DNA of 64,000 nucleotides from Longimicrobiales bacterium (lineage in GTDB: Bacteria > Gemmatimonadota > Gemmatimonadetes > Longimicrobiales > Gaopeijiaceae): the NCBI GenBank assembly GCA_958296005.1, contig CATQHQ010000001.1:200134-264133 (forward strand). The letters run 5' to 3'. This document shows positions 1 to 58,225 of the stretch, piece by piece. Under the pieces are notes generated by a model. It was given only the letters and a program-made list of their open reading frames with translations, made no database searches and was not told the DNA's origin. The first letter of the stretch is position 1. Each line of letters opens with the position of its first letter. Position numbers and translations under genes: made by a program.

Positions 1-846
1 CCGGAGGCCGTTCAGGCCATGGCCACGCCCGCCGTTCTCGAAAGCGGCGACTCCACCGGCTACGGACTAGGGCTGGGCGTGGGCGAGATGCGCGGCCGCA
101 CCGTCTACGCGCACACCGGCGGCGACGTGGCCCACCGCGCGTACTTCGGCTACTTCCCGGAGTTGGACGACGGCGTCGTCGTCATGAGCAACAACGCGGC
201 GTTCAACCTGGGGCTGGGCGGGCAGATCGCCCAGTTGTTCTTTGCGGACGATCTCGAAGCGGAGGACGACGAGGAGGCCGAGGCCACGGGCGACGGCAGC
301 ATGTCGCCGGAGCGGATGGAAGCCGTCGCCGGCCACTGGGTCCTCGACGTGCGGGGCATGTCGCTGGACGTGGAGATCACCACCGAAGACGGCCAGCTCT
401 TCTTCCAAGCTGCCGGCCAGCCCCGCACGCCCGTCCAGACGTCGTCCGATTCGACGGCGGCGATCCCGGCCGCTCAAGCATCCTTCACCTTCCACTTCGA
501 GCCCGACGGAACCACCCGCTCCGCCACCTTCCGCCAGGGCGCCGAAATGGCGATGCGCAGATCGAACCGGGAGGCGCTGACCGAAGACGACCTCCGCGCC
601 TACGTCGGTCGCTACTTCTCGGAGGAGCTCGAGACCTTCTACGAAGTCAAGCAGGAAGACGGCGGACTCGTCCTGCACCACTTGGACAGGCCGCCGATGG
701 CACTCACCCACCGGGACGGAGACGAGTTCTCTTCCGAGTTCACCTTCCTGGCCACGGTCGCGTTCCAGCGGGCCGGCAACGGTCGAGTCACGGGGTTCAC
801 CGCGTCGAACGGCCGCACCAAGGGAGTATGGTTCCGGCGGATGTAG
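1..846 (+). CDS. serine hydrolase / beta-lactamase-family protein, C-terminal part (5' end outside window)
   Basis: The frame is open from nt 1 (track ORF 19..846). 'YAHTGGDVAHRAYFGYFPELDDGVVVMSNN' resembles the H/K-T-G box region of class-C beta-lactamase/esterase-like hydrolases and is followed by an extra C-terminal domain. TAG stop at 844-846. Confidence 0.6.
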   Translation, partial: PEAVQAMATPAVLESGDSTGYGLGLGVGEMRGRTVYAHTGGDVAHRAYFGYFPELDDGVVVMSNNAAFNLGLGGQIAQLFFADDLEAEDDEEAEATGDGSMSPERMEAVAGHWVLDVRGMSLDVEITTEDGQLFFQAAGQPRTPVQTSSDSTAAIPAAQASFTFHFEPDGTTRSATFRQGAEMAMRRSNREALTEDDLRAYVGRYFSEELETFYEVKQEDGGLVLHHLDRPPMALTHRDGDEFSSEFTFLATVAFQRAGNGRVTGFTASNGRTKGVWFRRM

Positions 847-1994
847 CCACCATGGCCAATCACTCTACGTTCGACCTGCTGATCTCCAACTACAAGAGTA
901 TCGCCTCGTTGAAGATCGGCGGTTTGCTCCCCTTCACGGTCTTTGCTGGGCCGAACGGCTCCGGCAAGAGCAACTTCTTCGACGCCCTGGACTTCGTGGG
1001 GAAGGTCTGCCGCTACGGTGTCGAGGATGCATTGCGGGCTCACGGCGGTGCCGACAACATCCGCTCAGCGAAACTGTACAAGCCCAAGAATCGACATTTT
1101 GAGTTCGAAATCAAGCTGCATGACGCGAACGCTGAGAAACGCGACGATGCACGGTCTTCCGACTACGCACTCCGAATTCAAGAGTTTGCGACTGTGCCAG
1201 AGATCGGGGAGTCTCTTTATCGTCACGACATCCCGTTGTTCACTCGTACTCCGGGGAGCCCAGTACTTAGACACCAAGCGGACCGCATCCGGAACTTCAG
1301 CTATCCGGCTTCAATGTCGACTCTGCGGACCTTCAAGCATCTGTTGGCGCGCCTACTGACAAACATCACCGTGTACCGCATGGACCCTCGGTCGGCCAAG
1401 GAGCCGGACCCCTCCGACGCGGACCCGTCCAAACTCAATGCCAGGGGAAGCAATTTGGCGGCTGTACTGGGACGCATTGAGTCCGACCGAGAAGCCCGGA
1501 CACTCATCGGCCAGTGGATGGAGATGGTCGTTCCTGGCGTTCAAGCGATCACGACCAAGCGCCAGCGACTTGACCATAGCACGGCGGTACTGTTCAAGGA
1601 ACATGGCACAAAGAAGCAGTTTCCTGCGGGCTTGATGTCGGACGGTACGATCTATGCACTCAGTCTGCTAGTGGCGGTGCTGGACAGGCCCTACCGCCGC
1701 GGCCTTACGCTCATTGAGGAACCAGAACGCGGACTCCATCCGGCGGCGATAGCCGAGTTCGTCGACTTCCTCCGAGACTCGGCTGGACCAGAAAACCCGA
1801 TCTGGGTCACGACCCACAGCGAGTCCGTAGTGCGGAGGCTTCAGCTTGAGGAGCTGGTTGTGGTGGACAAGAAGGCTGGCCGCACTCGCATGAAGCGTGC
1901 GGACTCAGGAAACCTAGAGCAGGCGGACTTGGATCCTATTGGCTTGGACATGGCATGGCTGTCCAACCTGCTGAACGGTGGGGTGCCATGGTAA
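828..1994 (+). CDS. ABC/SMC-like AAA family ATPase (AAA_15/AAA_21-type, OLD/PARIS AriA-like)
   Basis: Walker A 'FAGPNGSGKSNFFDAL', signature-like 'GLMSDGT', Walker B 'LTLIEEPERGLHP', H-loop 'VTTHSE'. An alternative ATG at 852 (MANHSTF) avoids overlap with the upstream gene. The TAA stop overlaps the next start (ATGGTAA). G+C is lower than the flanks. Confidence 0.85.
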   Translation: MVPADVATMANHSTFDLLISNYKSIASLKIGGLLPFTVFAGPNGSGKSNFFDALDFVGKVCRYGVEDALRAHGGADNIRSAKLYKPKNRHFEFEIKLHDANAEKRDDARSSDYALRIQEFATVPEIGESLYRHDIPLFTRTPGSPVLRHQADRIRNFSYPASMSTLRTFKHLLARLLTNITVYRMDPRSAKEPDPSDADPSKLNARGSNLAAVLGRIESDREARTLIGQWMEMVVPGVQAITTKRQRLDHSTAVLFKEHGTKKQFPAGLMSDGTIYALSLLVAVLDRPYRRGLTLIEEPERGLHPAAIAEFVDFLRDSAGPENPIWVTTHSESVVRRLQLEELVVVDKKAGRTRMKRADSGNLEQADLDPIGLDMAWLSNLLNGGVPW

Positions 1995-2490
1995 AGATCG
2001 GATTTGTGGTAGAGGGATATACGGAGAAAGTATTTGTTCAGAGCGAGGCGTTTCGCGGGTGGCTTGAGGAGCGGGAAATGCGTCTTGTCGATCCCGTGAT
2101 AGTTGCGGGTGGACACGGGAGGATGCGGCGACGGGTTGCCGAGGAGTGCCGTGCATCACCGCACGAAAGAACCAGATTGATTCTGAAGCGGCCGACCTTG
2201 TTGTCGTCGCCCGGAAAACCATCGAATCGTGGTTCTTGGCCGACACCGAAGCGATAGCACGCTGGACGACGGACGACTCGTACTACGAAGCGCATCCAGA
2301 GGCAACTCCGGGTATGCCATGGGACCGCATCAAGGAGGTCGGTCCCGTAAGGCGCGGAAGAAGCAAGGTCTTGTTTGCAAAGCGCTTGACCAAAGAACAT
2401 GGATTCGACATCGCACGAGCGGCGGAACATCCGGAGTGTCCGACAGCCCGGTACTTTGTCGAGCGTGTTGGTGCCTTGGGACTAAGCTGA
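1988..2490 (+). pseudogene. DUF4276/TOPRIM-like partner of the AAA ATPase, interrupted by a frameshift
   Basis: The N-terminal part 'MVKIGFVVEGYTEKVFVQSEAF...VIVAGGHG' is in frame 2 (ATG 1988, runs to the stop at 2257). The C-terminal part '...DLVVVARKTIESWFLADTEAIARW...' is in frame 1 (open from 2068, stop at 2488-2490). One indel between ~2100 and 2170 would join them. Family assignment is from remembered motif patterns (EG-TE N-terminus, ESWxLAD C-terminus). Confidence 0.55.
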
Positions 2491-52823: not shown

Positions 52824-55519
52824 CGTTCGTCTCCCTCGCGTCGGATCTCCAGGAGCAGCTCCAAGGCGTCCTCGTAGTTGGGGGCGATCTCCAGGGCCGC
52901 GAGCACCTCCCGCCTGGCGGCCGCGCGGTCGTCGCCCCTGTAGAGTACACGGGCGAGGCGGAAGTGTGCCGCCGCCCGGTCCACCGGGTCCAGGGCCAGG
53001 ATCGACCGTCTGGCCATCGGCGCGCCCTCCCAGTCGCCGAGCTCCTCCAAGGTGTCCGCCAACCGCTGGTGATCCGCAATCTCGTAGGGATGGACGAAGG
53101 GCACGCCGCGAAGGGCGTCCGAGGCCCCGGCCAACTCTCCGGCGTCGGCAAGCACTCGGGCCAGGGCGGTTCGGCCTTCGTAGTGACTCTCGTTTAGGCG
53201 CAGAAGCTCCCGGTAGTGGTTGGCGGCGGCCTCCCGGTCGTCCTCCGCTTCGCGGATCCGTCCGAGGTACCAGTGGGGACCGTCGGGGCCGCCGTACTCT
53301 GGGAAGAGCCGCAACGCCGCATCGAAGTGTCGGGCGGCGGTCTGGAGCTGGTCGTCGTCGAAGAGGGCGCGGGCGAGGGCCATTCGGGACTCGAAGCGGC
53401 CCGGGTCTCGGGCGACTGCCGCCCGCGCGCCGGCCAAGTCCCGGGGCGGGTCCCCCGGCGGGTGCGCCCCCACCGACGCGACCGCCGTCGCGAACCGGTC
53501 CGCCAAGTGTTCCTCGAACTCCTCGTCGAACTCCTCCAGGCGCACTCCCAGCGCCCGTTCGAACGCCTCCTCGTTGCTCGCGCCGTCGCGGTAGGCCAGG
53601 AGCATCTCGAGGATCGCCGGGAAGCCGTGGCGCTCTTCGATCATATCGAACACCAGCGAGGCTTGGAGGTAGCTGTTGGCCACTTCGCCCGGATGACGCG
53701 GGTTGGAGAAGCCCCGGTCCAGCTCGCTCACGGGACGGAGGCCGCCCGACGCCAGGGCACGGATGAAGCCGACGCCGGGGTGGCGTCCCCAGGTGGGATC
53801 TCCCTTCCGTTGCTCGTGGACCGCCAGCCCTTCGGAGAACCAGCGCGGCACTTCGCTGTCCGACGCGCCGATGTGGAACGAGTGGGCGATCTCGTGCCAC
53901 AGGGTGGACGCCCAGTTGAAGCTCCCCTGCTCGCGGGCGGAGGGCGAGTCAATGGCCAAGGCGGGCCCGAAGCTGACTCCGAGCGCGCCGATGCCCACCA
54001 AGCCGACGGTCCGCACCGAGAAGTCGGCGTGGCGGGGGTAGACCTCCACCCGGATCGGCTCGGAGGGCGCGTAGCCGTACCGTTGGGACATCTGGCGATG
54101 GGCTCTCTCGGCGACGGGCGCCATGTACGGCGCCAGCAGGTCGGCCTCCGACTCGTGTAGGACGAGGCGGAAGTGCTCGGTCTCCACGACCCGGTACTCG
54201 GCGAAGGTGTCGAGGAGGTCCAGCGTGTTCTTGAACCAGAGGTTGAAGGGGTCGCCGGCGAAGGCGCGCTCCAGATGCGTCCGAGCTTCCTCCACCCGAC
54301 CCAGGCGGAGTTGGTTGAGCCCGGCGAGGCCCCAGCCGGTCCAGCTGTTGGGGTCGGCGCCGGCTGCCGAGAGGGCGAAGTCGAGGGCGTCGGGGTACTT
54401 GCGGTGGTCGGCGGCCAACTCCGCCAGGACGACGTAGGGCCGGGTCGGCGCCGGGGTCAGCTGGCGGACGCGCTCCATCGTGGCCCGAAAGGCCATTGCG
54501 TCGCCCGCCAAGTGGTGGATCGCGGCTTCGGCGCCCAGGGCCTCGAGCGCCGCGCCGTTTGTTTCCAGGGCGCGCTCGACCTCGGCCAGAGCGGCCTCCC
54601 GGTCGCCGCTGAGCAGGAAGAGGCGGGCGCGGAGAACGCGGGCGCCGACGAGGTTGGGGTTGGCGGCGAGAGCCGTGTCCAGCGACGCCGACGGGTTGCC
54701 CCCACCCTCCAGCCGCGCCACGCGGGCCAAGCCGAAGTGCGCCTCGGCGTGGTTCGGGTTTTCGGCGACGACGGCGCGGAACGCCTCCGCCGCCTGGGCC
54801 GCGTCGTAGCGCTCCAGGAAGAGCTCCCCGACGGCGAGCCGGGCGGAGTGGTCCAGCGGGCCGGCGGCCTGCGCCTCGTCGAGGGCGCGGAGGGCGTCGT
54901 GCGCGTACTCGTAGTTCCAGCGTGACAGACGAGAGAGGGCGCGCCCGACGGCGACGAGCTCTCCGGCGGACAGCCGGGCGTTGGCGCCGCCCGCGCTGTT
55001 GTAGTCGTCGATGAAGCCGTCGAAGAGGGCGCGGGCGGCTTCTCGGTCGCCGTACCGGTACTCCAGGACGCCGAGCTCGACCCGGGCCAGCGCGCCGGCA
55101 GGACCGGGGGCCTCGGCGGCAGCCCCCAGCGCCGCGCGCGCCGCGCCGACGCGGCCGGTCCGCAGCAGCGCCGCGCCGAGGTGGGCCTGCGCACCGGGGA
55201 CGCCCCGTTCGACGGCGGTCCGAGCCGCGGTCGCCGCGTCGTCGTAAGCGCCGGTCTCGACCAGCGCGGTGATCCAGCCGGAGAGCGCGAGGGGATCGCC
55301 GTCGAGAGCAGCGGGGCGGAGGACGCGGATCGCATCGTCGTAGCGGCCGGCGACGAGGGCGTCGTGTCCTCTCGACCGTGCCTGCGGGACCTGACGGGCC
55401 GAAGCAAGCTGCACCAGACAAGACATTGTCATCACGACAACCGCAACAGCAGATTGCCGCCTACTGCCACCGCAAGGCAAACTAGACGACCGGAGACAAC
55501 TGGCAAGTCGCCTATACAT
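52820..55519 (-). CDS. secreted TPR-repeat protein with MA-clan (Peptidase_MA_2-like) HExxH domain
   Basis: Many TPR-like helices. 'LWHEIAHSFHIGASDSEVPRWFSEGLAVHEQ' (HExxH plus Glu). ATG 55519 gives a signal peptide ('RRQSAVAVVVMTMSCLVQLASA'); alternative ATG at 55432. The first ~40 codons have atypically low third-position G+C. Confidence 0.85.
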   Translation of the reverse strand: MYRRLASCLRSSSLPCGGSRRQSAVAVVVMTMSCLVQLASARQVPQARSRGHDALVAGRYDDAIRVLRPAALDGDPLALSGWITALVETGAYDDAATAARTAVERGVPGAQAHLGAALLRTGRVGAARAALGAAAEAPGPAGALARVELGVLEYRYGDREAARALFDGFIDDYNSAGGANARLSAGELVAVGRALSRLSRWNYEYAHDALRALDEAQAAGPLDHSARLAVGELFLERYDAAQAAEAFRAVVAENPNHAEAHFGLARVARLEGGGNPSASLDTALAANPNLVGARVLRARLFLLSGDREAALAEVERALETNGAALEALGAEAAIHHLAGDAMAFRATMERVRQLTPAPTRPYVVLAELAADHRKYPDALDFALSAAGADPNSWTGWGLAGLNQLRLGRVEEARTHLERAFAGDPFNLWFKNTLDLLDTFAEYRVVETEHFRLVLHESEADLLAPYMAPVAERAHRQMSQRYGYAPSEPIRVEVYPRHADFSVRTVGLVGIGALGVSFGPALAIDSPSAREQGSFNWASTLWHEIAHSFHIGASDSEVPRWFSEGLAVHEQRKGDPTWGRHPGVGFIRALASGGLRPVSELDRGFSNPRHPGEVANSYLQASLVFDMIEERHGFPAILEMLLAYRDGASNEEAFERALGVRLEEFDEEFEEHLADRFATAVASVGAHPPGDPPRDLAGARAAVARDPGRFESRMALARALFDDDQLQTAARHFDAALRLFPEYGGPDGPHWYLGRIREAEDDREAAANHYRELLRLNESHYEGRTALARVLADAGELAGASDALRGVPFVHPYEIADHQRLADTLEELGDWEGAPMARRSILALDPVDRAAAHFRLARVLYRGDDRAAARREVLAALEIAPNYEDALELLLEIRREGDER
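55499..55507. repeat. left copy of 9-bp direct repeat ACTGGCAAG flanking the islet
   Basis: Identical 9-mer at 58217-58225. Both copies are followed within ~35 nt by TCGC..TAT, CATCAG and CTATCC strings. Chance occurrence is not excluded. Confidence 0.3.
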
Positions 55520-55982
55520 CAGCTATCCGCCAGACATTATGGCGTCGCTGCTTGGAAAACACAAGTTCCTTGAAGAAGACTGCTTCTTCTGATCTCACGT
55601 ATCTCCAAGACTGCGGTACAGCAAACCTCGTGAGGGACGATCTCAAGTGATCAAGCTCAATGGGCGCCATTCTCCACAGGCCAATAATCTCCAAAGCATA
55701 TGCCACGCTGCTACCGGCAAAATAACTATCATACTCGTCTCTACCGACGCCGGCAACGTTAGATATTCGTCGCCAAACTAATTCTGGTGATTCGCTCCAG
55801 ACACGCCCAATTCGAAACCCACCCCAGATCTCCCTGACAGGAGTCGACACATAGATCACCACTCGACGATTGGGGACAAACTCCGTGCTGATCCGTCTGC
55901 GAAACTCTACCTTCTTCCGGCCTCCAAACACCAGTTTCGCATATCTCGGCTTGAGCGAAATAAGTACCAGTTTCGTGCTCAC
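55512..55982 (-). CDS. stand-alone ASCH-domain (PUA-like fold, COG4933-type) protein
   Basis: 'LISLKPRYAKLVFGGRKKVEFRRR', 'VVIYVSTPVREIWGGFRIGRVW', 'YALEIIGLWRMAPIEL', 'AVPQSWRYV'. The GTG start overlaps the upstream stop (GTGA). A GGAG motif lies 6 nt upstream. Low G+C. Confidence 0.85.
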   Translation of the reverse strand: MSTKLVLISLKPRYAKLVFGGRKKVEFRRRISTEFVPNRRVVIYVSTPVREIWGGFRIGRVWSESPELVWRRISNVAGVGRDEYDSYFAGSSVAYALEIIGLWRMAPIELDHLRSSLTRFAVPQSWRYVRSEEAVFFKELVFSKQRRHNVWRIADV

Positions 55983-58015
55983 CGTAGACTCCGTCTGTAT
56001 ATCTCCGCAAATTCATTTGCGGTGAGCATGAGGGGTGACTGCAGGGACAACGTTCCGCGTCCGTTTTCCAGTATCTCCCTGAGTATCGCCAGTGATACCG
56101 GCTTGCGAAACGGAAATGTATGGGAGAAAAGCAATGTCATCAACTCCGTCGATACATCCCTCCGGCACATATCGAAGATGTCTTTCCAATCCAGTACACC
56201 AAGTCGCTTGAATTTCTTGAACAGCACCTTGGGCTTGTCACATACAACATCATCAAGTCGAGACACAGCAACGACTTCGCGCTGGTTTCCGCTCACGTAC
56301 CAGAGTATCCGTGCCGGTGCCTTGAGTTTCCTATGGTGCGTCTTGCGTCGATAGTATACGTTCTTCCATCGCAACAACACATCGACCCTGCCCCCAAACA
56401 TGTCCCTAGCTGATCCAGAATTGTCAACAAGGCTGATGGCATAGCCTGGTTTTATCGGTACAAGAACGAAACGTTGATCAGCATCCGTCACACTTAAAGG
56501 AGAACATACCTTCTCTAAATCGGTGCACGCCTTGCTGTTGTACAGGCCTTGAACTGATGGGGCCAACTTTCGAATCCTAGAAAGCACATCAAGACGACTC
56601 CACGTCCCAGAGAAGACAAATCGCACATATGCGTTTTCATGTCTCACGAATCCCATATCGTTGAGATATGGAAACACTGGGGGCGGTACAAAACTGTCTT
56701 CCACCTGAATCATGCATTCGTCATGGTGTCTTGCCGCTCTAGTAATCGTGTCAGCCAGCAAGTATCGACCGAACAGAGCATGGTCTTCGCCACGCGCAAT
56801 TCTGGCCAGCATTATGTTGATCTTGCTACTACTCTCGGTGACCACACGCAACGCCATGACTTCGCCACCGAACCAAAGCTGCTCTACGCGATACTGATGT
56901 GGGCACGCGCAGTGTTCGTTAAGCTTCTGGCGTAGGATTCCTTTCTTCTCGGTCTGGCCGGCTTGGCCAAGAAATCTGTCAAATGGAAACGCTTGTAGGT
57001 TGTCTGACGACATTCTCCGCCACTCAAGGCCCTGTTCTCCCGCAATTCGTGATGGTACATATAGCTGGCGGTCCGATAGTTCATGCAAACTAACAATCAA
57101 TTCCGATGGATAAACAACAGAAATGCCTGTGCATTCGAGGATGTCCCTCTGTCTCTTGAGTATACCCTCGTCTTCGGTGACGAATACTTTGATTCCGTCA
57201 GATGCAGCCGTGATCGCGAGGTGGTTGATGTCGGACATGTCGGCGTCTGACTCGCTGGGTAAGATCTGTTTTAGCTTGTCGACAAATTGATCTTTGACCT
57301 CAGGGTCGTGCTCTACTCTTGGGTATTGATGTGCAAGTTGTTGCGAACGATTGCGTTTCTCATCATCGTCGCTCCTATTGATCTCGTGGAAGAGCTCGTC
57401 CGTTATGTAATAATTAACGGAATCGACGAGATGGTCAGCCAACAGGGCCTTGGATGGCCGAGCTCTGTCACTGTCAGGTTCACCCGTGTAAAATATGATC
57501 TGAGCGTCCAGTACGGCGTCGACTCTGTCATCTGACTTGTCTGCTTGGAATAGGCTAAGTTGCTCGTCCTTTGCTAGGTTACGAACCCACAACGTTAGAA
57601 GATAGCCTTCCTTTGACCGTCCGCGCTTTTCGCCTTCCGGCACAAAAGCCAGCTTGCGCCACATGTTGTTGGCCTCATAGTCGCGTCGGCAACTAAGTTT
57701 GATGTATTTGTGACCGGTATCGCCGACCGATACCAGTCGGTCTACTAGCTTTCTTGCAAGTCCTTGACCTCGAGACGTACTAGAAACGCATAGATGCCAG
57801 ATTCGGAAATACGTTGAATGATCGGCGTACAACAGATAGGCCAGCAAGGTCCCGGAATCGTCTTGGATTCCCATTACGGTACCACGTTCAAGGTATTCGT
57901 GCAGTGCTTTCCCCGGCAAGAAGCCTAAGGTCTGACCGTTTTCCTTCATCAGCTTATCAACTGCAACGTAGTGGGCTGGCGTGAGGGTTACCGGGGAATC
58001 GTTGATCATCGTCAT
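55979..58015 (-). CDS. multidomain protein: GNAT acetyltransferase + PIN-like nuclease + degenerate GNAT-like region + C-terminal ASCH/PUA-like domain
   Basis: GNAT motif A: 'FRIWHLCVSSTSRGQGLARKLVDRLV'. PIN acidic residues: 'VDAVLDAQIIF', 'ITDELFHEI', 'DINHLAITAASDGIKVFVTEDEGIL'. ASCH-like: 'FVLVPIKPGYAISLVD', 'ILWYVSGNQREVVAVSRLDDVV', 'SLQSPLML'. AGGAG lies 9 nt upstream of ATG 58015. ~47-48% G+C. Confidence 0.8.
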   Translation of the reverse strand: MTMINDSPVTLTPAHYVAVDKLMKENGQTLGFLPGKALHEYLERGTVMGIQDDSGTLLAYLLYADHSTYFRIWHLCVSSTSRGQGLARKLVDRLVSVGDTGHKYIKLSCRRDYEANNMWRKLAFVPEGEKRGRSKEGYLLTLWVRNLAKDEQLSLFQADKSDDRVDAVLDAQIIFYTGEPDSDRARPSKALLADHLVDSVNYYITDELFHEINRSDDDEKRNRSQQLAHQYPRVEHDPEVKDQFVDKLKQILPSESDADMSDINHLAITAASDGIKVFVTEDEGILKRQRDILECTGISVVYPSELIVSLHELSDRQLYVPSRIAGEQGLEWRRMSSDNLQAFPFDRFLGQAGQTEKKGILRQKLNEHCACPHQYRVEQLWFGGEVMALRVVTESSSKINIMLARIARGEDHALFGRYLLADTITRAARHHDECMIQVEDSFVPPPVFPYLNDMGFVRHENAYVRFVFSGTWSRLDVLSRIRKLAPSVQGLYNSKACTDLEKVCSPLSVTDADQRFVLVPIKPGYAISLVDNSGSARDMFGGRVDVLLRWKNVYYRRKTHHRKLKAPARILWYVSGNQREVVAVSRLDDVVCDKPKVLFKKFKRLGVLDWKDIFDMCRRDVSTELMTLLFSHTFPFRKPVSLAILREILENGRGTLSLQSPLMLTANEFAEIYRRSLR

Positions 58016-58063
58016 GTTGGGTGGCTCCTGTTGTGTGATAGTGGCCGTCAGTGTCTAGCCAAG

Positions 58064-58090: not shown

Positions 58091-58216
58091 GGCATAAATG
58101 GGAAGATATGCTGCTCGACTTGCTGGGTCAACGTATCGGTTGTCCGGGCTCGAGGCGAAAGGCAGGCCAAGACAGGTCTCGCCAACTACGGTCGTCAAGC
58201 TGGTCATCTGGGGGCC

Positions 58217-58225
58217 ACTGGCAAG
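58217..58225. repeat. right copy of 9-bp direct repeat ACTGGCAAG flanking the islet
   Basis: See 55499-55507. Lies 28 nt downstream (minus-strand sense) of the channel gene stop. Confidence 0.3.

Follow-up and report, generated by a model that had tools for sequence, protein, structure and literature searches.

The PIN-GNAT-PUA plus ASCH cassette of a Longimicrobiales bacterium: a horizontally acquired variant of a predicted defence or toxin-antitoxin-like class with an additional N-terminal GNAT module

Two overlapping minus-strand genes were analysed in a stretch of 64,000 nucleotides from a Longimicrobiales bacterium (assembly GCA_958296005.1, contig CATQHQ010000001.1, positions 200,134 to 264,133; hereafter the window). 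The first gene encodes a protein of 678 aa composed of an N-terminal GNAT acetyltransferase, a PIN nuclease, a degenerate GNAT and a PUA/ASCH-like module, and the second gene encodes a free ASCH protein of 156 aa. This cassette is a variant of the predicted (PIN)-GNAT-PUA/EVE plus ASCH class and not a new category of system, and its additional N-terminal GNAT, as judged from the sequences, defines a large subfamily. The cassette was horizontally acquired and, on balance, probably represents an RNA-directed defence or toxin-antitoxin-like module with the PIN domain as effector and with PUA-like pockets that recognise nucleic acid. A preliminary description of the DNA had found no named family for this architecture; this was wrong, as such a pair is listed by PADLOC as the candidate system PDC-M11 and the core was described from comparative genomics in 2013, 2017 and 2020.

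PDC-M families are multi-gene defence candidates which were predicted because they lie inside BREX, DISARM or Type I restriction-modification (RM) loci and have no phenotype assigned (Payne et al. 2024, 10.1101/2024.01.29.577857). Two further papers, cited here for their sections on these genes, described the core of the class. Proteins of the PIN_15 and PIN_17 families combine a PIN domain, a GNAT-like domain that has no motif A and a PUA-like domain, and the operons always carry a second PUA/ASCH domain on another gene (Matelska et al. 2017, PMC5499597), while '(PIN)-GNAT-EVE' operons with an ASCH gene and an association with Type I RM were reported by Bell, Wolf and Koonin (2020, PMC7641849). 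The first notice of the class is attributed in the two papers to Iyer et al. 2013. The window pair shows the features of this class, i.e. PIN before a GNAT-like domain, loss of motif A in the latter, a C-terminal PUA-like module and a separate ASCH gene. The gene order is that of PDC-M11, in which A is the PIN-bearing and B the small ASCH component and whose members, like the relatives of the window pair, adjoin RM genes; with the operons of the two papers the family of the window pair shares the sporadic distribution, the annotation as 'acetyltransferase family protein' and, in relatives, the association with Type I RM and other defence genes. In contrast to the definition of PDC-M11, no defence system surrounds the copy in the window, and the helix-turn-helix (HTH) domain fused to the ASCH protein in some class members is absent from the window ASCH protein.

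The main difference is at the N-terminus. The PDC-M11A profiles have 486-501 positions and start at the PIN domain, whereas the window protein adds approximately 160 N-terminal residues that comprise a GNAT with intact motif A. Profile position 36 corresponds to aa 197, therefore the profile starts at about aa 162 and the published family is devoid of the N-terminal GNAT. This GNAT is likewise not mentioned in the sections on these genes in Matelska et al. and Bell et al., and its absence from both the profile and those sections makes it the distinguishing mark of the subfamily. Since only about 130 residues resemble the A profile, the window protein belongs to a diverged sister family of PDC-M11.

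The size of the family was assessed by two kinds of search. The word-indexed homologue search yielded 12 clusters, and the same 12 were obtained again with a 71-sequence alignment. The exhaustive profile search gave 4,643 matches, with 1,422 clusters at 50% identity having E<1e-30. Nearly all of the top 150 representatives (50% identity) align from the N-terminus of the profile and thus span the N-terminal GNAT, so that the four-module architecture constitutes a large family. For the analysis of gene pairing, 88 loci from metagenome contigs and from 80 genome loci (13-sequence alignment query) were examined. A small ASCH gene is located directly downstream on the same strand in all 88, mostly with an overlap of the 4-bp type; conservation of the ASCH neighbour among homologues, which had been proposed as a check, was thus found throughout. 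The copies on plasmids of cultured Calothrix and Nostoc are annotated in RefSeq as 'GNAT family N-acetyltransferase' followed by 'hypothetical' or 'EVE domain-containing'. On two cyanobacterial plasmids the pair is followed by a gene for an AAA-family ATPase (L089, 10643-13506; L090, 3125-4411; locus numbers with the prefix L are those of this study), which has no counterpart in the window and may correspond to the AAA_17 ATPase beside the operons in the relevant section of Bell et al. (PMC7641849).

The structure of the large protein was modelled with AlphaFold2 on the basis of 13 homologues (mean predicted local distance difference test score, pLDDT, 82). The model falls into modules, whose positions are given in Table 1, with linkers of low confidence between them at aa 150-161 and aa 312-328. 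Residue conservation was counted over 141 family members, and 71 diverse relatives were scanned with Pfam. The four-module reading of the preliminary description was borne out by profiles, folds and conserved residues, and Foldseek comparison of AlphaFold models supported the N-terminal GNAT, the GNAT-like middle and the ASCH-like C-terminal folds. In the N-terminal module (aa ~36-130) the window protein itself matches Pfam GNAT weakly (E ~1e-4), and GNAT models were matched by 71 of the 71 relatives; the fold resembles Ard1/Naa10/RimI with a template modelling (TM) score of ~0.8. Motif A is conserved at R/Q82 (95%), G85 (92%) and A/G87 (89%), and H74, C76, C109, R110, D112 and W119 are each conserved in at least 91% of the sequences. 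This module is apparently a catalytically competent acetyltransferase, as predicted from these residues. The search of a viral fold library returned generic GNAT matches only.

The second module was matched by Pfam PIN_3 in 44 of the 71 relatives (best E 4.7e-10), by PIN in 11 and by PIN_12 in 4. The residues D170, E207, D262 and D282 are conserved to 99-100% with VapC-like spacing, and the alternating strands and helices of the model are compatible with a PIN fold. Three of these acidic positions had been named correctly beforehand, and the fourth, D262 (in 'SDINHL'), had been overlooked. The middle module, when modelled alone, reached a pLDDT of 91, and its top 50 PDB fold matches are all GNATs (E 2e-6, TM 0.5-0.6). 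R405 (96%) is the sole conserved residue at the place of motif A and no G-x-G/A follows beta-4, therefore the module is a degenerate GNAT. The C-terminal module resembles the Zymomonas ASCH protein ZmASCH (5GUQ/5GUS/5Y6C) in fold (Foldseek E 4e-8, TM 0.75-0.81), and by sequence it matches 5GUS (profile E 0.037) and PDC-M11B (E 2e-6). Conserved residues are Y554, Y555, R556, P567, R569, W572, Y573, S585, F630 and T633. The best fold match is thus ASCH; in the strict sense this PUA-like module may be ASCH or EVE.

The small protein was matched over its full length by PADLOC PDC-M11B (E 3e-30). A profile of 20 sequences matched ZmASCH (5GUQ/5GUS) in the PDB with E 2.5e-27 over residues 7-144, and Pfam ASCH was found in 17 of these 20 relatives. 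In 87 distinct sequences K23, E26, R28, Y44, P48, W70, Y87, Q124, S125 and R127 are invariant, S9 (98%), P123 (99%) and Y128 (98%) are nearly so, and G21 is conserved to 93%. With its GxKxxExR signature the protein falls into the ASCH superfamily and the ZmASCH/TRIP4-like clade. This degree of conservation, together with a ratio of nonsynonymous to synonymous substitution rates (dN/dS) of 0.26, exceeds what would be expected, on sequence grounds, of a simple binding antitoxin. The small protein and the C-terminal module of the large protein are paralogous (BLASTP E 4e-5, 26% identity over 87 aa), in agreement with the earlier view of the neighbour as a paralogous free ASCH domain.

The small protein is homologous over its full length to ZmASCH (ZMO0922; 5GUQ, 5GUS, 5Y6B, 5Y6C), with which it shares the GxKxxExR signature. 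ZmASCH was studied in isolation as a Mg-dependent ribonuclease specific for single-stranded RNA (ssRNA). ZmASCH binds single-stranded DNA (ssDNA) and ssRNA and cuts ssRNA, not ssDNA, and residues Y47, K53, Q127 and S128 are implicated in nucleic-acid binding and ssRNA cleavage (Kim et al. 2017, PMC5615036). These align with Y44, R50, Q124 and S125 of the small protein. The depositors of the four PDB entries labelled the 149-aa ZmASCH 'Helix-turn-helix domain-containing protein'; this label was probably carried over by automatic annotation from HTH-ASCH homologues (COG4933), the proteins that accompany PIN-GNAT-PUA genes in alphaproteobacteria.

A second comparison concerns acetylated bases. 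In the EOLA1/TRIP4-like ASCH clade the N4-acetylcytidine deacetylase pocket was assigned to S7, K21, E24 and R26, and bacterial homologues are located in RM operons beside predicted tRNA endoribonucleases (2026 preprint, bioRxiv 10.64898/2026.08.01.741249). S9, K23, E26 and R28 of the small protein have identical spacing. The Ser, Lys, Glu and Arg spacing is common to both, and a sequence-level match is lacking, as neither EOLA1 nor YqfB was matched by the small-protein profile at E up to 10. In the YqfB clade the middle position of the triad is occupied by Thr/Ser (K-x-x-T/S-x-R), whereas the small protein has Glu (E26); membership in the YqfB clade was rejected on the basis of this residue and the missing match. 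In the fused module the equivalents of the pocket residues are E/K551, Y554 and R556. Because these replace the pocket residues, the fused PUA-like module looks like a reader devoid of catalytic residues.

The coordinates of the cassette and its signals are compiled in Table 1. The two minus-strand genes, their GTGA overlap and the GGAG-type ribosome-binding sites of the preliminary description were all seen in the sequence. For the candidate promoter the support is weak, with 4 sites observed in the consensus scan against 2.2 expected. The two copies of the imperfect 30-nt direct repeat are 70% identical, share the exact common end ACTGGCAAG and may have arisen by chance. No Rfam family was matched in and around the cassette, and the 237-nt leader upstream of the large gene folds no better than shuffled sequences (z = -0.93). 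The corresponding 237-bp gap contains only two open reading frames (ORFs) of 45-50 aa, neither of them credible.

Table 1. Coordinates of the cassette, its signals and the modules of the large protein in the window
Feature	Position	Strand	Remarks
Large gene, 678 aa	55979..58015	-	ATG start; GNAT / PIN / degenerate GNAT / PUA-ASCH-like; ORF call
Small gene, 156 aa	55512..55982	-	GTG start; free ASCH protein, ZmASCH family; ORF call
GTGA stop/start overlap	55979..55982	-	large-gene TGA (55979-55981) shares bases with small-gene GTG (55980-55982)
AGGAG ribosome-binding site, large gene	58025..58029	-	9 nt before ATG; sequence inspection
GGAG ribosome-binding site, small gene	55989..55992	-	6 nt before GTG, within the end of the large gene; sequence
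Candidate promoter TTGACC-17 nt-TATCTT	58103..58131	-	~90 nt upstream of large gene; consensus scan
N-terminal GNAT module, aa 1-150	57566..58015	-	motif A R82-G-Q-G85-L-A87 intact
PIN nuclease module, aa 162-312	57080..57532	-	VapC-like acidic tetrad D170/E207/D262/D282
Degenerate GNAT-fold module, aa 329-505	56501..57031	-	acetyl-CoA motif A absent
C-terminal PUA/ASCH-like module, aa 510-678	55982..56488	-	predicted non-catalytic variant (K/E551, Y554, R556)
Imperfect direct repeat copy 1, 30 nt	55478..55507		brackets low-GC segment; possible insertion scar
Imperfect direct repeat copy 2, 30 nt	58196..58225		other side of low-GC segment

The base composition of the cassette is foreign. In 500-bp windows the G+C content of positions 55500-58000 is 0.49-0.52 in comparison to 0.66-0.77 in both flanks, which makes the cassette the deepest G+C trough within the 64-kb window. 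The large gene has a G+C content of 0.501 and a third-position G+C content (GC3) of 0.55, the small gene 0.503 and 0.54, respectively, and the GC3 of the adjoining genes is 0.88-0.89. The contrast claimed in the preliminary description therefore stands (~50% against ~70% in the flanks), while its hand count of 47-48% was slightly too low. In 84 of 84 loci the cassette has a lower G+C content than its host, with a median difference of -8.9 points. It is present in at least 8 phyla, and proteins from Latescibacterota and Dehalococcoidia reach 76% amino-acid identity. With this composition and distribution the cassette is a horizontally acquired element. The closest genome matches are all metagenome-assembled genomes, assigned to Poribacteria, Latescibacterota, Dehalococcoidia, Vicinamibacterales, Nitrospirales, Binatia, Caldilineaceae and Alpha- and Gammaproteobacteria. 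Such an assemblage is typical of marine sponge microbiomes, which suggests that the cassette may be shared within one habitat. No tRNA or integrase gene was found adjoining the low-GC island. An empty insertion site was not found either; a metagenome scan with the ion-channel protein gave four distant loci that were non-syntenic or too short. Since no empty site was found, the insertion boundaries are based on composition and on the weak 30-nt repeat.

The same site is occupied in the related, co-occurring strains L008 (10001-12504) and L095 (8001-10500) of sample ERZ19489113. The flanks are 97-100% identical across the three strains, and the cassette is present in two allele classes that differ by 8-18%. 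Divergence is greatest over the PIN module and tapers within a few hundred bases into both flanks. The synonymous substitution rate (dS) is 0.25 for the large and 0.17 for the small gene in comparison to 0.06-0.07 in the flanking genes. Both cassette genes are under purifying selection (dN/dS 0.43 for the large gene against the L008 allele; that of the small gene is given above), and the allele pattern fits an older allele imported by homologous recombination, not decay. The predicted start (55519) of the downstream ORF of 899 aa, a tetratricopeptide repeat (TPR)/peptidase-MA gene, lies beyond the stop codon of the small ASCH gene, so that the two overlap, and the starts called in L008 and L095 lie about 29-31 codons further inward; translation probably begins near 55432, and the intergenic gap would then measure ~80 bp and hold one of the repeat copies.

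For the function of the cassette, the reading given above, i.e. an RNA-directed defence or toxin-antitoxin-like module, is preferred. The preliminary description had already proposed an RNA-directed toxin-antitoxin or anti-phage candidate, and this reading is consistent with the gene pairing, the defence genes among the neighbours, the AT-richness and the crossing of phyla. The GTGA coupling would keep the synthesis of the two proteins at a fixed ratio, and they would act as one complex. Single-stranded nucleic acid or modified bases in a flipped state may be bound by the two PUA-like pockets, with RNA, e.g. tRNA, as the likeliest ligand. The fused pocket, having lost its catalytic residues, would serve as reader, and the free ZmASCH-like protein retains the S-K-E-R pocket associated with N4-acetylcytidine deacetylation in EOLA1. 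As effector, the VapC-like PIN would cut RNA and halt translation, by which phage replication or cell growth would be blocked. The degenerate GNAT may be a scaffold or ligand-binding module, and the N-terminal GNAT may use acetyl-CoA as a second effector or write the mark recognised by the PUA-like modules. In this scheme we infer that a complex forms and that RNA is the target; the trigger, the acceptor of the acetyl group and an anti-phage phenotype are likewise inferred.

Several observations weigh against the preferred reading. The likeness of the small protein to EOLA1 and YqfB consists of motif spacing alone, and the deacetylase activity of EOLA1 is disputed for the mouse protein (bioRxiv 10.64898/2026.08.01.741249). 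For ZmASCH, ribonuclease activity was reported in one in vitro study only, and its cleft is devoid of acidic metal ligands (PMC5615036). The nearest folds of the N-terminal GNAT are protein N-terminal acetyltransferases and not enzymes acting on nucleic acid or aminoacyl-tRNA. The PIN call is backed by sequence profiles and residue conservation only. The PDC-M11A match (E 2e-15) spans only aa 197-324, and the coverage thresholds of PADLOC were not applied. According to the section on these modules in Bell et al. 2020 (PMC7641849) none of the (PIN)-GNAT-EVE modules has been experimentally characterised, and no experimental phenotype for any class member was found in the literature searched. Moreover, the cassette is flanked in the window by an ion-channel gene and the TPR/peptidase-MA gene, both housekeeping, so that guilt by association is inapplicable locally. 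Defence-island context, which had been proposed as a check, is a frequent feature of the relatives, and the window cassette itself lies outside any defence island.

The neighbourhoods of the relatives contain unrelated housekeeping genes mixed with defence genes, and the flanks differ from locus to locus. The numbers given here are raw counts among the relatives examined; one single-linkage neighbour cluster (cluster 0, represented by a sigma factor) mixed unrelated proteins, and its members were examined singly. A Type IIG restriction endonuclease-methyltransferase of the Eco57I/MmeI type is located directly upstream on the same strand in 14-17 loci. PLD-SNF2 helicases (12 loci), HsdM (6 loci) and HsdS (5 loci) are encoded nearby, PDC-S15/FRG proteins (7 loci), HEC-01/AriA/OLD-type (PARIS-like) ATPases (4 loci) and PD-T4-4 (2 loci) downstream, and the Calothrix copy is flanked by Eco29kI and McrBC (1 locus). 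The cassettes of the relatives are thus often placed in defence islands beside RM genes. The Type IIG gene (L009, L011, L012, L014, L015, L018, L022, L031, L060, L083 and others) encodes an N6-adenine enzyme of 950-1290 aa with NPPY and DPACGSGAF motifs, at a gap of -63 to ~250 bp, and may form a three-gene unit with the cassette in a subset of hosts.

The recurrence of methyltransferase genes directly upstream makes a role in DNA modification the main rival. The cassette would then be an accessory reader/effector for DNA restriction-modification, its pockets would read a DNA base mark (e.g. N6-methyladenine) set by neighbouring Type IIG, Type I or BREX-like methyltransferases, or a mark on phage DNA, and the PIN domain or the GNAT would act on DNA, in the manner of an add-on for modification-dependent restriction. 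Besides the Type IIG and HsdM/HsdS genes just listed, the definition of PDC-M11 by its location within BREX, DISARM or Type I RM loci (10.1101/2024.01.29.577857) speaks for this explanation, as does the view taken in the relevant section of Bell et al. (PMC7641849) that ASCH in such operons binds modified DNA, for which HTH-ASCH and HsdS-ASCH fusions are cited. ZmASCH, too, binds ssDNA besides ssRNA, but it was ssRNA and not ssDNA that was cleaved (PMC5615036). Against a DNA target, most loci, the window included, have no adjacent methyltransferase, therefore the cassette is able to work alone. In addition, the PIN module belongs to the VapC/PIN_3 type, whose characterised members cut RNA. A DNA-directed role is hence regarded as unlikely, and it is the foremost of the alternatives.

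A further alternative, to which we give a low probability, is an acetyl writer/eraser toxin-antidote pair like DarTG, in which the GNAT would acetylate a nucleobase (e.g. at cytosine N4) or aminoacyl-tRNA as the toxic step and the free ASCH protein, as an amidohydrolase, would erase the mark, by which the cell would survive until an infection upsets the balance. The PIN domain and the fused reader would, in this doubtful scheme, destroy the marked RNA. In its most explicit and equally tentative form the GNAT would write an acetyl mark (e.g. N4-acetylcytosine in RNA or DNA), which the fused module would read in order to direct the PIN domain and which the free ASCH would erase, either for protection of the cell itself or for a reset of the module. 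This writer/reader/eraser logic, which we hold to be improbable, would be comparable to that of DarTG or of restriction-modification, with acetylation as its basis. The strong conservation of motif A and of further residues in the N-terminal GNAT agrees with such a scheme. The free S/K/E/R pocket with EOLA1 spacing, which is 98-100% conserved, and the loss of the pocket from the fused module (E/K551, Y554) would fit one eraser and one reader, and nucleic-acid acetylation was proposed for the class by Iyer et al. 2013, as cited in the sections on these genes in Matelska et al. (PMC5499597) and Bell et al. (PMC7641849). On the other hand, core PDC-M11 and PIN_15/17 members, which are devoid of an active GNAT, keep the same ASCH partner; therefore the partner does not solely reverse acetylation by the N-terminal GNAT. 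The link of the small protein to deacetylation consists of the spacing of its motif. The N-terminal GNAT also shows no detectable relation to the enzymes that would be expected, as neither TmcA/NAT10 nor TacT/AtaT/ItaT/KacT was among the best 60 of its 69-71 PDB sequence matches (E up to 10); the matches listed are AAC(3), RibT, Ard1/Naa10 and RimI-type enzymes. The contrast between an intact free pocket and a degenerate fused pocket may nevertheless reflect an acetyl reader/eraser split of labour, which is worth testing.

The explanations that remain are less likely than a role in DNA modification. The cassette might be a selfish addiction module without an immune role, in which the small ASCH protein would bind and neutralise a large PIN/GNAT toxin and which would persist by post-segregational killing and horizontal transfer. 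A translationally coupled two-gene operon, the sporadic distribution across phyla and the plasmid copies fit such a module, and the genes were classed as putative toxin-antitoxin systems in the respective sections of Matelska et al. (PMC5499597) and Bell et al. (PMC7641849). In addition, the large gene is disrupted while the small ASCH gene is intact in L004, L056, L077, L079, L082, L086 and L087; in L079 (9959-13811) an interruption of ~1.26 kb is located between residue ~504 and the C-terminal part, and the other six large genes appear frameshifted. However, conservation of the small protein far exceeds that of typical protein antitoxins, an enzyme-like pocket is retained in it, its gene sits downstream of the putative toxin, no ribbon-helix-helix (RHH), AbrB or HTH DNA-binding antitoxin accompanies the pair, the upstream gap is without a credible ORF, and the neighbours of the relatives are rich in defence genes; overall, a purely selfish module has little probability. 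Least probable by far is a housekeeping enzyme pair for RNA modification or turnover (e.g. of acetylated tRNA nucleosides) that is foreign in appearance only, since the frequency of ASCH, PUA and GNAT domains in translation-related proteins (section of Bell et al. 2020, PMC7641849), the housekeeping genes around the window copy and its stable site in three related strains are opposed by the strongly foreign composition, the patchy phyletic distribution with cross-phylum transfer, the unrelated flanks with frequent defence genes and a cassette dS four times that of the flanks.

Comparison with established toxin-antitoxin systems gave partial likeness. VapC-type PIN and GNAT toxins are two translation-targeting toxin classes. 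The large protein resembles VapBC in its VapC-like PIN with four conserved acidic residues and TacAT/AtaRT in its GNAT with an acetyl-CoA motif. It differs from VapBC and from the GNAT-RHH systems in that the toxin candidates are fused in 678 aa and that the partner is a downstream ASCH protein. No gene for a VapB-type or RHH/DUF1778 antitoxin accompanies the window pair, and none of the VapB type was called in the loci of the relatives. Because this DNA-binding antitoxin gene is absent, membership in VapBC or in TacAT/AtaRT/ItaRT/KacAT was rejected.

Further observations were made around the cassettes. Very large TPR-repeat proteins are encoded downstream of the cassette in 9 loci, and ORFs of 491 aa are located in L042, L058, L069 and L085 ~575 bp past the stop of the large gene, just beyond the small gene. 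A search of a phage collection with the cassette gave no match. The window itself contains a second defence system, a HEC-01 pair at 828-2490 (+), in a milder G+C dip (0.585-0.615). The HEC-01A ABC ATPase (828-1994, +) is intact (E 5e-124), and HEC-01B is distributed over two frames, with 1955-2257 corresponding to profile positions 1-48 and 2146-2490 to positions 76-186, as would be expected if the gene is a pseudogene with a frameshift or if the sequence contains an error.

For more than ten years the (PIN)-GNAT-PUA plus ASCH class has stood as a prediction, and PADLOC lists it as a candidate. The subfamily described here joins in two polypeptides a predicted-active acetyltransferase, an intact VapC-like nuclease, a reader-type PUA module and a free ASCH protein with a pocket linked to N4-acetylcytidine deacetylation, and this free ASCH protein is closely related to ZmASCH, for which alone among ASCH proteins RNA cleavage has been reported. 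Should the cassette be an ordinary toxin-antitoxin pair, the value of the result would be confined to annotation, as hundreds of genes annotated as 'GNAT family N-acetyltransferase' would belong to this class. The conserved residues of the variant bear on the question whether nucleic-acid acetylation takes part in bacterial immunity.

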